Of a stretch of 17,329 nucleotides of DNA, positions 5,836-13,491 are shown piece after piece. The stretch lies in IMG/VR virus record IMGVR_UViG_2639763139_000009. One strand, written 5' to 3'. A program made the translations under genes and the position numbers. The DNA is from a virus. Taxonomy: Duplodnaviria; Heunggongvirae; Uroviricota; Caudoviricetes. Below the pieces are notes generated by a model. It did not search any database. It saw only the letters and a program-made list of their open reading frames with translations, and had not been told where the DNA came from. How positions within the stretch are numbered: position 1 is the first letter of the stretch; every line of letters starts with the position of its first letter.

Positions 5836-6200
5836 TGATTAATCGAACCAAACTGGAGCACATTCTCGAATATGCCAGGCAGCAGAAATGTATTGGGCAA
5901 CTTTGTAAAATTCCACCAGGAGATATGGTTGAAATCGTGGAAATGGCCATGCGTAAGGCTGGCAACTCTCCGGTAACTCTGGCTGGCTGGATAAGCTGTA
6001 GTGATGCAGTTCCTGCTGAATATTGCGATGTGATTCTTCTCGATGATCTCGGGAATGTATTCCCCGGTTCCTGGGATAAGGTTTTTTGCCCCACTCGTGG
6101 CGGGAATAAGATGGCTTTTGTGGACAAAGACGGCGTTGAAGTAGAGAGCTCAACTCACTGGATGCCGCTACCGGAACCACCGCAGGAGGTGAATCAATGA
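5835..6200 (+). CDS. DUF551-like phage protein
   Basis: C-terminal motif GWISCSDAVP...HWMPLPEPP resembles the DUF551 signature (WISV.D.LP...WMPLP.PP) as I recall it. Confidence 0.55.
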   Translation: MINRTKLEHILEYARQQKCIGQLCKIPPGDMVEIVEMAMRKAGNSPVTLAGWISCSDAVPAEYCDVILLDDLGNVFPGSWDKVFCPTRGGNKMAFVDKDGVEVESSTHWMPLPEPPQEVNQ

Positions 6201-6280
6201 CCTGGCCTGAGGCATTCACCACGGTAGGAATTGCGATGGCGGTGGCGCTGGTGGTGTATTCGATTTGCCGTTGGGGTTAA
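6197..6280 (+). CDS. small membrane peptide (27 aa), hypothetical
   Basis: ATG at 6197 overlaps the upstream stop (ATGA). A perfect aggagg sits 7 nt upstream. Encodes MTWPEAFTTVGIAMAVALVVYSICRWG. A terminator follows directly. Below the ORF-track size cutoff. Confidence 0.5.
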   Translation: MTWPEAFTTVGIAMAVALVVYSICRWG

Positions 6281-6285
6281 CAAAC

Positions 6286-6317
6286 AAAAACCCCGGATTG
6301 ATGGTCCGGGGTTTTTG
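6286..6317 (+). terminator. rho-independent terminator
   Basis: ccccgg-attgatggt-ccgggg hairpin followed by ttttt. Confidence 0.8.
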
Positions 6318-6597
6318 AAGGAAACAAAACAGAAACAGCAATTGCCGTTACCTGTTGTTACCATGGCAAGTAAACGTATCTCAGGCGAGCGCATTGCGCC
6401 GTTCTGACGCAGATAAATTAGCCTGGATAGAAGGTGCTGGCAATAAAAAATAGCGTTTTCTTATCGGTATCGGTAAGATTGCTGCGGGTGCTTGAGGCTG
6501 TCTGCCTCGGGCATGCCACTGTAAGGCAGACAGAGAAAAGCCCCAGTTAACATTACGCGTCCTGCAAGACGCTTAACATTAATCTGAGGCCCAATCT

Positions 6598-6810
6598 ATG
6601 TCTCACAAATGTAGGTTAGCCTCTTACGTGCCGAAAGGCAAGGAGAAGCAGGCTATGAAGCAGCAAAAGGCGATGTTAATCGCCCTGATCGTCATCTGTT
6701 TAACCGTCATAGTGACGGCACTGGTAACGAGGAAAGACCTCTGCGAGGTACGAATCCGAACCGGCCAGACGGAGGTCGCTGTCTTCACAGCTTACGAACC
6801 TGAGGAGTAA
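6598..6810 (+). CDS. mok-like in-frame upstream reading frame of the hok locus
   Basis: 70-aa ORF that extends hok by 19 codons at the N-terminus, as in chromosomal mok/hok pairs (recalled as ~69 vs ~50 aa). Confidence 0.45.
   Translation: MSHKCRLASYVPKGKEKQAMKQQKAMLIALIVICLTVIVTALVTRKDLCEVRIRTGQTEVAVFTAYEPEE
6655..6810 (+). CDS. hok: Hok/Gef-family type I toxin (51 aa)
   Basis: MKQQKAMLIALIVICLTVIVTALVTRKDLCEVRIRTGQTEVAVFTAYEPEE is a transmembrane helix plus the conserved Hok C-terminal domain. Recalled as near-identical to HokD/RelF. Confidence 0.9.
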   Translation: MKQQKAMLIALIVICLTVIVTALVTRKDLCEVRIRTGQTEVAVFTAYEPEE

Positions 6811-6877
6811 GAGACCAGGCGGGGGAGAAATCCCTCGCCACCTCTCATGTGTCAGGCATCCTCAACGCACCCGCACT

Positions 6878-6902
6878 AAACCCGCTTCGGCGGGTTTTTT
6901 GT
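6878..6902 (+). terminator. rho-independent terminator at the 3' end of the hok transcript
   Basis: aaacccgc-ttcg-gcgggttt hairpin plus T-tract. Confidence 0.8.
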
Positions 6903-7086
6903 TGCGTGCTGAATACGCAGGGTGAAAAATAACCATATATTTGATTATATACACAACAAAAAATAAAAGTCATTGTACTTGCACATTAAACAATCAAATA
7001 TACGGCGTGAAATAAATATTTATCAGATTAATATTTTTGTCTCTATGTGGATATAACCGTTTGTACTTATAAACCTGGAGGCATCG

Positions 7087-7298
7087 TGGAAAAAATAAAG
7101 AAACTATTTAGTAGCAAATACGCAGTCATACGTCGTGATGACCTGTCAGTTATAGTCGAAATGGATTACTTCCCTGAAACCCCAAAATCAATAATGTATC
7201 GTAATGGTCGAAAGGCAATTTTTTTACCGATGAGGGTAAGTGACATTATGGGAAATGATAAACTGCTGGATGAATTGCGAGTCAGAGCATCCTGTTAG
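7087..7298 (+). CDS. small hypothetical prophage protein (Rem-like by position and size)
   Basis: GTG start 5 nt after ggagg. The ORF-track alternative is 7047..7298 (83 aa). Position after hok parallels the hokD-rem order of the Qin prophage as recalled. The stop codon lies within the IS1 target duplication, so the gene is intact. Confidence 0.45.
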
Positions 7299-7315
7299 TA
7301 GGTAATGACTCCAAC

Positions 7316-7819
7316 TTACTGATAGTGTTTTATGTTCAGATAATGCCCGATGACCTTGTCATGCAGCTCCACCGATTTTGAGAACGACAGTGACTTCCGT
7401 CCCAGCCTTGCCAGATGTTGTCTCAGATTCAGATTATGTCGCTCAATGCGCTGAGTGTAACGCTTGCTGATAACGTGCAGCTTTCCCTTCAGGCGTGATT
7501 CATACAGCGGCCAGCCATCCGTCATCCATACCACGACCTCAAAGGCCGACAGCAGGCTCAGAAGACGCTCCAGTGTGGCCAGAGTGCGTTCACCGAAGAC
7601 GTGCGCCACAACCGTCCTCCGTATCCTGTCATACGCGTAAAACAGCCAGCGCTGACGTGATTTAGCACCGACGTAGCCCCAATGTTCGTCCATTTCAGCG
7701 CAGACAATCACATCACTGCCCGGTTGTATGCGCGAGGTTACCGACTGCGGCCTGAGTTTTTTAAGTGACGTAAAACCGTGTTGAGGCCAACGCCCATAAT
7801 GCGTGCACTGGCGCGACAT
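7316..7819 (-). CDS. insB: IS1 InsB (transposase expressed as InsAB fusion by frameshift)
   Basis: 167-aa ORF overlapping the insA 3' end, typical IS1 organisation. Confidence 0.93.
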
Positions 7820-8013
7820 CCGACGCCATTCATGGCCATATCAATGATTTTCTGGTGCGTACCGGGCTGAGAGGCGGTGTAAGTGAACTGTAGTTGCCAT
7901 GTTTTACGGCAATGAGAGCAGAGATAGCGCTGATGTCCGGCAGTGCTTTTGCCGTTACGCACCACGCCTTCAGTAGCGGAGCAGGAAGGACATCTGATGG
8001 AAATGGAAGCCAC
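7738..8013 (-). CDS. insA: IS1 InsA
   Basis: 91-aa zinc-finger protein [40 protein letters not shown]... Confidence 0.93.
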
Positions 8014-8146
8014 GCAAGCACCTTAAAATCACCATCATACACTAAATCAGTAAGTTGGCAGCATTACCCTGTTAGTATTGGCATTAATTCTGGTATACTA
8101 CATAACGGGCTGAACACCCATTCTACTGCGCCAGCGGAGAACTACG

Positions 8147-9776: not shown

Positions 9777-9853
9777 GGCCCTTTAGCTCAGTTGGTCAGA
9801 GCGAGCGACTCATAATCGCCAGGTCGCTGGTTCAAGTCCAGCAAGGGCCACCA
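9777..9853 (+). tRNA. tRNA with anticodon CAU, ileX/ileZ-like (tRNA-Ile2 if lysidine-modified, otherwise Met)
   Basis: Manual cloverleaf: acceptor ggccctt/aagggcc, D-arm gctc/gagc, anticodon loop ctCATaa, T-loop ttcaagt, encoded CCA. Confidence 0.85.
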
Positions 9854-9854
9854 A

Positions 9855-9931
9855 CCACCACTAGCTCATCCGGATAGAGCATCAACCTTCTAAGTTGACG
9901 GTGCGAGGTTCGAGTCCTCGGTGGTGGGCCA
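9855..9931 (+). tRNA. tRNA-Arg (anticodon UCU)
   Basis: Acceptor ccaccac/gtggtgg, anticodon stem tcaac/gttga with loop ctTCTaa, T-arm cgagg-ttcgagt-cctcg, encoded CCA. Confidence 0.85.
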
Positions 9932-9933
9932 GC

Positions 9934-10009
<76 letters not shown>

Positions 10010-10012
10010 TAT

Positions 10013-10087
<75 letters not shown>

Positions 10088-10201: not shown

Positions 10202-11806
10202 ATGATTCAGCTATCCAGTAGTCACAAACTTCCAGCAGTCTACTATCTCTACCAGCGTAACGGCGTCTACTACTTCCGTCTTAGGGTCAGACAATCAAAC
10301 AATGATAGAATGACCTCAATATCATTACGGACCAAGGATAGACGCACCGCTATGGCTTACTCAAGGCACATAAAGGCAGCACTCAAGGCAATACACGCAG
10401 ACAGACCCAACGCTACCTATGAGGAAATGAGGGAACACCTTAAGGACATCGCTGAGTGTGAACTGTCTATGGGCCGTTCAGATCTCTTTGAGCCTGACAT
10501 GAGGGATATCTACCGGGACCAATACGGAGAACTTGGTGAGAGCCTTACCGATGCTCTGGCTAGTGAGCCGCTAAGCATTGACCAGCATCGTTACATCAAT
10601 GAGGCCCTGAAGGTGCTAAAAGCCTGTATGAGGCGTATCGAAGCGGGAGACAGTCAGCCTCTGATAGATTACGTCGATCTTTTTAATGATATTGATAGGC
10701 AAGATAACCAAGCAGACTCTGTGTCCCTATCTGTTAATGCTCCAGAAGTAAAACCAGAAGTTACGCCTAGCATTACCATAGCGAGCCTCTTTGAGCAATA
10801 CGAAGCGGAGAACTATCAGAACTGGAAGCCTGCAACCTTAAGGGAAAACAAGGCGTCACACGCTGCGTTAATCGAAATATTCGACCATCTGGGTCTCAAT
10901 GCAGACGCTAACAGGGCTGACATGCTTAGGGTCCGTGATGTGCTCCAGCAGTTACCTAGGAACCGTAAGCAGCGCTTCAAGGATGTCCCACTTGCTGACC
11001 TGTTGAGCCGTGAAGATAAGACAGATTGTCTGGATGTCGTTACCATCAACAACAAGTATCTTATTAAGATGGCTGCTGTCTTTAGGTGGGCTGTGCGCAA
11101 TGACTTGATTAAAAAGAACATGACTGAGGGTCTGGAGCTTAAAGTCCCTCAGCGTAAAGCCTCAGGGGCCCGTAACGCCTTCTCTACGGAGCAGGTGGGG
11201 CAACTACTGGTCGCAGCTAAGGCATACTCTCAGAAGACCTCTGGTAAGCCGTATCATTATTATGTTACCGCCTTGGCTGCTATCACTGGGGCGAGACTCA
11301 ATGAAATAGCCCAACTACAGGTCAAAGACGTCAGGACCACTGAGGCGGGAACCGTTTATATTCATATCAATGAAGACGATAGTAGTCTACCCGGTAAGAG
11401 CATCAAGAACGCTCATAGTGACCGCTGTGTGCCTCTGGTCGATGGGGCCTATGGTTTTATATTGGCTGACTTTATGGCGCTTGTAGAGACCCGTAGAGGC
11501 GCTGACGGTGATGACGCTATGGTGTTCGATGGTCTGCGTCTCATGAAGAACGGTTACGGTGAGCAGGTGAGTAAATGGTTTAATCGGACGTTGTTGCCTA
11601 AAGTCCTCGTAGACCGTAGCGGCTTAGCGTTTCACTCGTTTAGACATACAGTTGCGACCCAGTTAAAACAACATGGGGTCGAGTTGGCGTATGCACAGGC
11701 GATCATGGGGCATAGTTCAGGGTCTATTACTTACGACCGTTATGCTAAAGAGGTCGAGGTTGATAGGCTGGTCAATGTGATGGCTGATGTTTATAAGGAG
11801 ACCTAG
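10202..11806 (+). CDS. int: tyrosine site-specific integrase (534 aa, large form with extended central region)
   Basis: N-terminal arm-type motif VYYFRLRV. Catalytic-domain motifs TGARLNEIAQL, HSFRHTVATQL and the C-terminal ITYDRYAKE tyrosine. Starts 115 bp after the tRNA-Gly. Confidence 0.85.
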   Translation: MIQLSSSHKLPAVYYLYQRNGVYYFRLRVRQSNNDRMTSISLRTKDRRTAMAYSRHIKAALKAIHADRPNATYEEMREHLKDIAECELSMGRSDLFEPDMRDIYRDQYGELGESLTDALASEPLSIDQHRYINEALKVLKACMRRIEAGDSQPLIDYVDLFNDIDRQDNQADSVSLSVNAPEVKPEVTPSITIASLFEQYEAENYQNWKPATLRENKASHAALIEIFDHLGLNADANRADMLRVRDVLQQLPRNRKQRFKDVPLADLLSREDKTDCLDVVTINNKYLIKMAAVFRWAVRNDLIKKNMTEGLELKVPQRKASGARNAFSTEQVGQLLVAAKAYSQKTSGKPYHYYVTALAAITGARLNEIAQLQVKDVRTTEAGTVYIHINEDDSSLPGKSIKNAHSDRCVPLVDGAYGFILADFMALVETRRGADGDDAMVFDGLRLMKNGYGEQVSKWFNRTLLPKVLVDRSGLAFHSFRHTVATQLKQHGVELAYAQAIMGHSSGSITYDRYAKEVEVDRLVNVMADVYKET

Positions 11807-12723: not shown

Positions 12724-12778
12724 GGTAATGCTGCCAACTTACTGATTTAGTGTATGATGGTGATTTTAAGGTGCTTGC

Positions 12779-13054
12779 GTGGCTTCCATTTCCATCAGAT
12801 GTCCTTCCTGCTCCGCTACTGAAGGCGTGGTGCGTAACGGCAAAAGCACTGCCGGACATCAGCGCTATCTCTGCTCTCATTGCCGTAAAACATGGCAACT
12901 ACAGTTCACTTACACCGCCTCTCAGCCCGGTACGCACCAGAAAATCATTGATATGGCCATGAATGGCGTCGGATGTCGCGCCAGTGCACGCATTATGGGC
13001 GTTGGCCTCAACACGGTTTTACGTCACTTAAAAAACTCAGGCCGCAGTCGGTAA
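12779..13054 (+). CDS. insA: IS1 InsA
   Basis: Protein identical to the InsA of the first IS1 copy. Confidence 0.93.
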
Positions 13055-13476
13055 CCTCGCGCATACAACCGGGCAGTGATGTGATTGTCTGCGCTGAAAT
13101 GGACGAACATTGGGGCTACGTCGGTGCTAAATCACGTCAGCGCTGGCTGTTTTACGCGTATGACAGGATACGGAGGACGGTTGTGGCGCACGTCTTCGGT
13201 GAACGCACTCTGGCCACACTGGAGCGTCTTCTGAGCCTGCTGTCGGCCTTTGAGGTCGTGGTATGGATGACGGATGGCTGGCCGCTGTATGAATCACGCC
13301 TGAAGGGAAAGCTGCACGTTATCAGCAAGCGTTACACTCAGCGCATTGAGCGACATAATCTGAATCTGAGACAACATCTGGCAAGGCTGGGACGGAAGTC
13401 ACTGTCGTTCTCAAAATCGGTGGAGCTGCATGACAAGGTCATCGGGCATTATCTGAACATAAAACACTATCAGTAA
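12973..13476 (+). CDS. insB: IS1 InsB
   Basis: Protein identical to the InsB of the first IS1 copy. Confidence 0.93.
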
Positions 13477-13491
13477 GTTGGAGTCATTACC

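Follow-up and report, generated by a model that had tools for sequence, protein, structure and literature searches.

The hok/sok (parB) locus of plasmid R1 is the type I toxin-antitoxin system with which the locus studied here shares its set of elements and, by prediction, its mechanism; that mechanism has been described (PMC9841398, PMC1635323), and our definitions of the RNA elements are taken from the same two papers. Among prophages, hokW/mokW/sokW of 933W/Sp5 was annotated in the 933W genome (AF125520.1) and was the subject of experiments published in 2021 (Takada et al. 2021, PMC8621323). HokW, which is 44% identical to R1 Hok, is toxic, and sokW expressed from its own promoter neutralises it, with contributions from RNase III and Hfq; HokW is produced on prophage induction, and SokW disappears in a RecA- and induction-dependent manner for which no explanation was given (PMC8621323). 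Prophage loci of this kind are now catalogued by the thousands; a 2026 preprint lists 44,248 Hok homologues and finds them enriched in prophages (bioRxiv 10.1101/2025.08.07.668861).

The window, by which we mean the whole stretch of 17,329 nucleotides that was analysed, is a segment of a lambdoid, Rac-like prophage. We find that positions 6474-6902 very probably comprise a self-contained hok/mok/sok type I cassette of the prophage hokW/hokD type, with all of its elements intact in sequence and a predicted mechanism like that of R1. A type I toxin-antitoxin locus had been proposed in a preliminary description of this DNA, and the proposal is supported by the toxin family, the Rfam family, covariation of the tac/fbi helix and ~93% identity to hokW/mokW/sokW. 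Most of the features described there lie at, or within 3 nt of, the positions given; the exceptions are the leader length and the left boundary. The locus is already known, as an ordinary copy of a cassette common in the lambdoid prophages of E. coli and Shigella. By megablast, 4722 of the 5426 complete E. coli genomes contain related sequence (median of 2 places per positive genome, maximum of 9), the cassette matches 79 phage records, and the 1553-bp stretch around hok, including the IS1 junction, has 2 differences from Shigella flexneri SFBU1023 and ‘E. coli’ ECMA0423. Annotated ORFs that match in E. coli genomes are labelled hokD or ‘Hok/Gef family protein’; current automatic annotation marks the Hok ORF alone (‘hokD’), leaving out mok, Sok and the mRNA elements. 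The importance of the locus is small beyond its correct annotation, and it serves as a useful reference point rather than a discovery.

The gene order on the 5′ side of the cassette runs from a YdaU-like gene and a gene for an ATP-binding protein, both replication-side genes, through DUF977, HNH and DUF551 genes to a 27-aa sORF and hok/sok. The genes immediately 5′ of hok encode the HNH protein, a hypothetical protein, the DUF551 protein and the 27-aa sORF, in agreement with the earlier statement that no relBE genes precede hok. On the 3′ side are an 83-aa ORF, IS1, DUF1367, YbcO, a Q-like antiterminator gene and four tRNAs. The ORF that follows hok (7047-7298) was tested as rem, the gene expected from Qin and Rac, and was rejected, with no similarity to rem and no family match. 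Two IS1 copies are present in the window, both outside the cassette, and the nearer begins at 7301, 400 nt past the terminator; disruption of the hok locus by IS1 is therefore rejected. The two copies do suggest a decaying prophage, which counts against a functional cassette.

The toxin is identified by two comparisons. First, the 51-aa ORF matches the Pfam family HOK_GEF (PF01848), whose cut-off is 22 bits, with a score of 82.9 (E = 1.2e-23); the NCBIfam Hok models also match it, below their cut-off (48.5 versus 73). Second, its product is identical to E. coli K-12 HokD at 51 of 51 residues (100%). The ORF had been called a Hok-family toxin from its translation, and both comparisons confirm this. 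The in-frame extension of 19 codons noted upstream of it is also real: the list of ORFs contains a 70-aa mok-like frame that includes hok, and a GAGG Shine-Dalgarno sequence (SD) lies 8 nt 5′ of its ATG. To compare the locus with its relatives, 53 Hok loci were fetched from contigs of one genome per species, and 31 full-length mRNA regions, from Escherichia, Kluyvera, Photorhabdus, Pantoea, Citrobacter and others, were aligned. The mok SD is invariant in the 31 relatives. An ATG is found at the aligned mok position in 29 of the 31; 21 of the 31, the window included, have it in frame 19 codons ahead of hok. The coordinates of all features are collected in Table 1.

Table 1. Elements of the hok/mok/sok cassette, in window coordinates, with the basis on which each was assigned
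Feature	Positions	Strand	Basis and remarks
Putative hok promoter, -10 TAAGAT	6474-6479	+	6 nt before the predicted +1; placed by comparison with relatives; no convincing -35
Predicted full-length hok mRNA, ~415 nt	6486-6902	+	Predicted +1 to terminator T run; RF01794 start, homology start, fold
tac (translational activator element), GGGUGCUUGAGG	6486-6497	+	mRNA 5′ end; pairs with 6860-6872
5′ hairpin	6498-6533	+	MFE fold and relatives; alternative, metastable pairing of its 5′ arm with tac (6488-6498 with 6504-6514)
Candidate Sok antisense RNA gene, ~71 nt	6606-6536	-	Colinear with annotated sokW of 933W; ends predicted
ucb / mok anti-SD, AAGCCCC	6538-6544	+	Predicted partner of mok SD before truncation and of tac after it; pairs invariant in 31 of 31 relatives
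mok Shine-Dalgarno, GAGG	6586-6589	+	Invariant in 31 relatives
Putative Sok-target hairpin	6593-6617	+	Folds; holds mok AUG and loop CUCACAA (6602-6608), loop ~0.5-0.9 unpaired
mok-like leader ORF	6598-6810	+	70 codons, in frame with hok
Sok promoter	6613-6641	-	Predicted from comparison with Sp5; -35 TTGCCT (6641-6636), 17-nt spacer, -10 TAACCT (6618-6613)
dcb, GCCUC	6619-6623	+	Putative partner of mok SD in truncated mRNA; predicted occupancy low, P up to 0.16
hok Shine-Dalgarno, AGGAG	6641-6645	+	9 nt 5′ of hok AUG; paired in full-length fold; K-12 hokD homology begins here
hok toxin ORF	6655-6810	+	51 aa; Pfam match and HokD identity
3′ UTR hairpin, 9-bp stem	6818-6839	+	Folds; 93-98% paired in relatives
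fbi (fold-back inhibitory element), CCUCAAcGCACCC	6860-6872	+	Pairs with tac; covariation in relatives
Intrinsic terminator of hok mRNA	6878-6900	+	Stem 6878-6897, then T run; same terminator in K-12 hokD

The hok mRNA most likely starts at 6486, judging from comparison with known loci. A covariance-model search for the hok mRNA and Sok families, which the preliminary description had suggested as a check, gave a match to RF01794, the sole hok/sok family in Rfam, at 6486-6660 (118.1 bits versus a gathering score of 59, E = 7.9e-27). The alignment covers the full model (1-157) on the hok-sense strand, beginning at 6486 and ending at the hok AUG. The RF01794 model represents the hok leader, within which the complement of Sok lies; since the match is hok-sense and ends at the hok AUG, it certifies the leader and the locus, not the strand of Sok. 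A plus-strand Sok, as could be read from a plus-strand Rfam ‘sok’ match, is rejected on the same ground, as the model spans the whole hok leader to the hok AUG. Similarity to each of the phage hok loci sets in at 6478, and 28 of 30 relatives have a -10-like hexamer (TATAAT, TAGAAT or TATATT) at a spacing of exactly 6 nt from a near-invariant 5′ end, GGGYGCUUGAG. With the +1 at 6486, 169 nt of leader would precede the hok AUG, and 112 nt the mok AUG. A leader of ~330 bp and a left boundary at 6321, as first proposed, are not borne out: the start of the Rfam match, the start of phage homology and the conserved spacing of the -10 all argue against the longer leader and place the transcript start near 6486.

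Both promoters of the cassette were located by comparison, with the relatives for hok and with Sp5 for Sok, and not by scanning. A consensus promoter scan of 6200-7050 flagged neither the hok nor the Sok promoter, which counts against a functional cassette. So does the hok -10 itself, which matches the consensus at 4 of 6 positions compared to 5-6 of 6 in most relatives.

The spacer that precedes the conserved region (6318-6477) is rare and unannotated; it is present in 30 of the 5426 E. coli genomes, and a search of 6281-6485 against phage records gave no match. A strong bidirectional terminator (6285-6317) lies 5′ of the spacer, between the upstream genes and hok. As a separate observation, a small RNA on the minus strand may end at this terminator (6317-6285), with a fold of z = −3.9 that comes mostly from the terminator itself and a promoter that matches at 8 of 12 positions by eye.

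The MFE fold of the predicted mRNA has a free energy of −178.1 kcal/mol (z = −6.9 versus shuffles); with the Rfam score, this sets the locus well apart from chance. In this fold tac pairs with fbi with a probability of 1.0, and the helix is conserved by compensatory change. Across the 31 relatives, 90.3% of the tac/fbi cells are paired and both sides have changed at 3 pairs, with U-A replaced by C-G at 6489/6869 in eight sequences. A naive motif search likewise shows that relatives with GGGUGC carry GCACCC, while those with GGGCGC carry GCGCCC, ~55 nt 3′ of the stop codon. The projected structure as a whole is 82.6% paired in the 31 relatives, compared to 39-46% in the control in which the partners were slid. 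Thus, the folding of the transcript, which had been proposed as a way to look for tac/fbi pairing, finds the pairing, and the relatives show covariation in support of it. The long imperfect hairpin seen in the leader at 6501-6535 also exists, with its limits at 6498-6533; it is present in the predicted fold and is kept in the 31 relatives, where 88.7% of the cells are paired and both partners have changed at 4 pairs.

The pairs expected to form after tac is freed are predicted less firmly. The mok SD pairs with ucb with P = 0.99 in the full-length RNA, and this falls to 0.53-0.8 when fbi is removed in silico; pairing of tac with ucb is 0 in the full-length RNA and rises to P = 0.19-0.44. Occupancy of the mok SD/dcb pair after truncation is at most 0.16 by ensemble prediction. 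We report ensemble probabilities here because the MFE structure of the truncated RNA varies with the chosen 3′ end. The conformer with tac/ucb paired and that with the alternative, metastable-type 5′ hairpin are nearly isoenergetic after removal of fbi (−142.6 versus −142.0 kcal/mol); the alternative hairpin appears in nascent and truncated folds and is similar to the metastable structure that nascent hok mRNA of R1 is described to form. Refolding upon truncation is thus predicted to be only partial and to vary with the end point, which counts against a functional cassette. The tac/ucb and mok SD/dcb pairs are invariant in 31 of 31 relatives, so covariation speaks neither for nor against them; this invariance fits a constraint imposed by multiple pairing partners.

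At the 3′ end, the hairpin in the 3′ UTR is likely, by analogy with R1 (PMC1635323; PMC9841398), to be the road-block that defines the 3′ end of the processed mRNA. The strong terminator predicted at the end of the transcript is present, as a stem followed by a T run. Two other Rfam assignments for this region were rejected. The Hfq-binding sRNA IsrK (RF01394) scores 30.6 bits versus a threshold of 50 at 6819-6900 and aligns only to the hairpin, spacer and terminator, and a sub-threshold match of the 3′ UTR to rsmX is a generic resemblance to a hairpin plus terminator.

On the minus strand, a candidate Sok gene encoded in cis has its own promoter and covers the mok translation initiation region, as far as can be read from the DNA. 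The candidate RNA is predicted to have a single-stranded 5′ tail of 14 nt, followed by a long hairpin and a U-rich tail (fold of −29.2 kcal/mol, z = −5.3). The 5′ tail is complementary to 6593-6606, a stretch that takes in the mok start codon and some of the loop in the putative target hairpin. We take the CUCA within the loop sequence CUCACAA to be a motif of the YUNR type. The preliminary description had placed Sok on the minus strand at around 6570-6660 and could not place its promoter. The strand is upheld and the span is not, as that interval covers the promoter and only the 5′ half of the RNA. The promoter is now located by the identity of a 30-mer across it, 6614-6643 (minus strand), with the Sp5 sequence; its boxes are conserved in relatives, and the consensus scan missed it because only 7 of 12 consensus positions match. 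In Sp5, a promoter-less sokW construct, in which this same -10 was mutated, lost protection against HokW (PMC8621323).

The way in which these elements would act together has been demonstrated for plasmid R1 and in part for hokW; for the window it is proposed from conserved sequence and predicted folding. The weak promoter would give rise to a stable mRNA of ~415 nt from 6486. In the full-length RNA, tac would be clamped to fbi and ucb would sequester the mok SD, such that neither translation nor binding of Sok could occur. Slow exonucleolytic trimming from the 3′ end to the hairpin in the 3′ UTR would then remove fbi, and the freed tac could pair with ucb, opening the mok SD and the Sok-target hairpin. 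Translation of hok would be coupled to that of mok. While Sok is made, this short-lived RNA would base-pair over the mok SD and start codon and block mok, and hence hok, with the duplex marked for RNase III. If synthesis of Sok stopped, because the element was lost, transcription was shut off or the prophage was induced, the pool of processed mRNA would be translated and the 51-aa Hok would damage the inner membrane. The cassette likely serves for addiction to the prophage, for assistance to lysis at induction (a role reported for hokW-sokW), or for both.

A narrower version of this role, which we regard as tentative and rather unlikely, is that the cassette is wired to prophage induction by transcriptional interference and acts as a lysis helper timed by induction rather than as an addiction module. 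The gene orientations are observed, and the rest of the argument is inference. In the window, hok lies downstream of the early rightward genes (the replication-side genes through the Q-like gene) and has their orientation; in 933W/Sp5, after circularisation of the genome, hokW shares its direction with int and xis across attP. Given the co-orientation with the early genes, antiterminated early transcription would meet the convergent Sok promoter head-on and would add hok-sense RNA. If this were true, transcriptional interference could explain the RecA- and induction-dependent disappearance of SokW (PMC8621323).

It is also unlikely that the cassette is a silent relic, intact in appearance but without function, for example if the hok promoter were too weak or the host had no further need of it. 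Such an outcome has precedents. Several chromosomal hok loci are reported to be unable to mediate post-segregational killing, with no killing on loss or after rifampicin (bioRxiv 10.1101/2025.08.07.668861), which counts against a functional cassette here. A paralogue in a near-identical genome has visibly decayed in tac, ucb and the Sok -35, showing that loci of this type do decay. Within the window itself, the hok -10 is degraded relative to the TAGAAT or TATAAT of relatives, the consensus scan yields no promoter, and the prophage has taken two IS1 insertions. However, a weak promoter is normal for the hok family, as in R1 hok, and the IS1 copies leave the cassette untouched, the nearest lying well beyond the terminator. 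All of the needed elements are intact and match those of the functional hokW locus, and the ORF is identical to HokD.

Most improbable is that hok is mainly the distal part of a longer upstream transcript, with a ~330-nt leader or by read-through from the early operon like K-12 hokD after relBE, and that the tac/fbi clamp would then not work in the R1 manner. In its favour, the cassette, the upstream genes and the Q-like gene all point the same way, the hok promoter is weak, and K-12 hokD directly follows relBE without promoter-proximal hok elements. Against it, in the window a strong bidirectional terminator intervenes, the similarity to every other hok locus has a sharp start at 6478, the -10 stands at a fixed spacing before the invariant 5′ end in 28 of 30 relatives, and the spacer is absent from nearly all other hok loci.

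The reading that we prefer, a self-contained hok/mok/sok cassette, can be set beside four described systems. It resembles hokW/mokW/sokW of 933W/Sp5 (AF125520.1; PMC8621323), with ~93% nucleotide identity over 6478-6877. The two loci have in common tac, ucb, the mok SD, dcb, fbi and the in-frame 19-codon mok, as well as a Sok (predicted, in the window) of 71 nt with an extended hairpin and the 27-aa hydrophobic sORF upstream. They differ most where the Sok 5′ tail meets its target, at 7 of 20 nt compared to 23 of 371 elsewhere. Four C-terminal residues of Hok also differ (T45V, A46D, P49S and E51K, as read from the alignment), the terminators are different, and in the window a 160-nt spacer and a terminator are inserted between the sORF and hok. 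In addition, hokW of 933W lies at the right end, next to attR, whereas hok in the window lies between the replication-side genes and the Q-like gene.

This latter position is found in Rac-type and other lambdoid phages (e.g. MN652886.1 ‘phage Rac’, phage HannyBb), in which hok likewise follows the replication-side genes and precedes the Q-like antiterminator, and hok/mok is 92-95% identical in nucleotide sequence to that of the window. In Rac, DUF1367 and YbcO are also 3′ of hok, as in the window. The Rac record differs in that its mok is offset by 58 nt from hok and out of frame, while mok in the window is in frame; moreover, the ORF after hok in the window is not rem, and the window has IS1 at 7301.

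The likeness to hokD (relF) of the K-12 Qin prophage lies in the toxin and the 3′ part of the transcript. The Hok proteins are 100% identical, and the hok SD, 3′ UTR hairpin, fbi and terminator are near-identical. Homology extends only from ~13 nt before the hok AUG to the terminator, and K-12 therefore lacks both promoters (hok and Sok) as well as tac, ucb, mok, dcb and Sok itself. In Qin, relB-relE are immediately upstream of hokD; the window, with a full leader and no relBE, does not have the relBE-hokD arrangement. From its sequence, K-12 hokD is a truncated derivative that retains the hok SD, ORF and 3′ UTR, and the window contains the complete form of the hokD type.

Finally, hok/sok (parB) of R1 is carried on a plasmid, while the locus in the window is in a prophage, and its Hok is a distant one, with the 44% identity of HokW to R1 Hok (PMC8621323) as the measure. 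The Sok RNAs differ in size, as R1 Sok is 64 nt with an 11-nt tail (PMC1635323) and the candidate Sok of the window is ~71 nt with a 14-nt tail and an extended hairpin. The two loci belong to the same Rfam family, RF01794, and have the same set of elements and the same predicted switch, comprising tac/fbi, ucb, dcb, coupling to mok, and a Sok made of a tail and a hairpin.

The region where Sok is predicted to pair with its hok target differs markedly from the annotated hokW/mokW/sokW locus of 933W. Positions 6590-6609, which comprise the Sok 5'-tail and its target region, are a divergence hot spot, with differences from 933W at 7 of the 20 positions compared to 23 of 371 across the remaining locus (Fisher P = 3e-4). 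Similarly, two paralogues in a near-identical genome, L006 and L013, diverge at the Sok 5'-tail and target. The two paralogues nevertheless have the Sok promoter and fbi (the 3' pairing element) in common with the window. These comparisons suggest that each Sok is addressed to its own hok mRNA.

One of these paralogues, L006 (CP178302.1, 1947610-1949162), was compared with window 6440-6910. It encodes an identical HokD protein, but its tac (the 5' element) is deleted or mutated, its ucb (the mok anti-SD) has a 1-nt deletion and its Sok -35 has an insertion. Judged from these lesions, L006 is evidently a decayed hok copy that sits beside an intact copy in a near-identical genome.

Positions 6486-6660 match Rfam RF01794 (‘sok antitoxin’) on the hok-sense strand, with the hok AUG as the 3' limit, and this match says nothing about the strand or extent of the real Sok RNA. 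A match to IsrK, an Hfq-binding sRNA, at 6819-6900 (+) covers the hairpin, fbi and terminator of the hok 3' UTR; we rejected it, as its 30.6 bits fall short of the family's gathering score of 50 and the alignment reflects nothing more than a generic hairpin-plus-terminator likeness.

In the coding region, the Tyr47 codon UAC and the following G (UACG, 6793-6796) are invariant in all 31 aligned relatives. TadA A-to-I recoding of Tyr to Cys has been described for hokB, with similar sites in hokC, hokD and hokE (introduction of bioRxiv 10.1101/2025.08.07.668861), and the UACG motif of the window agrees in sequence with the hokB recoding site.

The spacer 5' of hok is rare: of 5426 E. coli genomes, just 30 carry it, and it had no match among phage records. 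It is conceivable that a minus-strand RNA has its 3' end at the bidirectional terminator; the candidate, which falls within 6285-6477, has a fold z of -3.9 and a weak promoter match, judged by eye, and all matches in an Rfam search of this interval were sub-threshold.

Features flanking the hok locus
Feature	Window	Strand	Remarks
Hydrophobic sORF, 27 aa, MTWPEAFTTVGIAMAVALVVYSICRWG	6197-6280	+	L001 (compared DNA piece) 1384-1467
Strong bidirectional terminator	6285-6317		
Spacer, 160 nt	to 6477		directly 3' of terminator; unannotated
IS1, complete, 768 bp	7301-8068		
tRNA cluster (CAT, Arg-TCT, Thr-TGT, Gly-TCC)	9777-10087		downstream of Q-like gene
534-aa ORF, Phage_integrase and DUF6538 domains	10202-11806		after tRNA cluster
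IS1, complete, 768 bp	12724-13491		

No complete E. coli genome spans more than 38% of the window at one place. Across 5955-7507, only 2 of 1553 positions differ from Shigella flexneri SFBU1023 and ‘E. coli’ ECMA0423, and this near-identity takes in the IS1 junction. A Shigella-type genome is the probable source of the window. Next after hok comes an 83-aa ORF, and the first IS1 begins 2 nt past its stop codon. The two copies are mutually inverted and enclose DUF1367, YbcO, the Q-like gene, the four tRNAs and the integrase-family ORF, an arrangement that has the apparent layout of a composite transposon or an inversion-prone segment. The CAT tRNA is called Met by ARAGORN but Ile in the annotation of a related genome. 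The location of an integrase-family gene downstream of a Q-like gene and tRNAs is unusual.

The start of the 27-aa sORF overlaps the stop of its upstream neighbour, the DUF551 gene, via ATGA. The sORF had no match in Pfam or NCBIfam, and is also found at further hok-bearing loci (L002, L005, L010, L023 and L057). In 933W, a homologue with 81% identity lies directly before hokW, although the gene upstream of it differs from that in the window.
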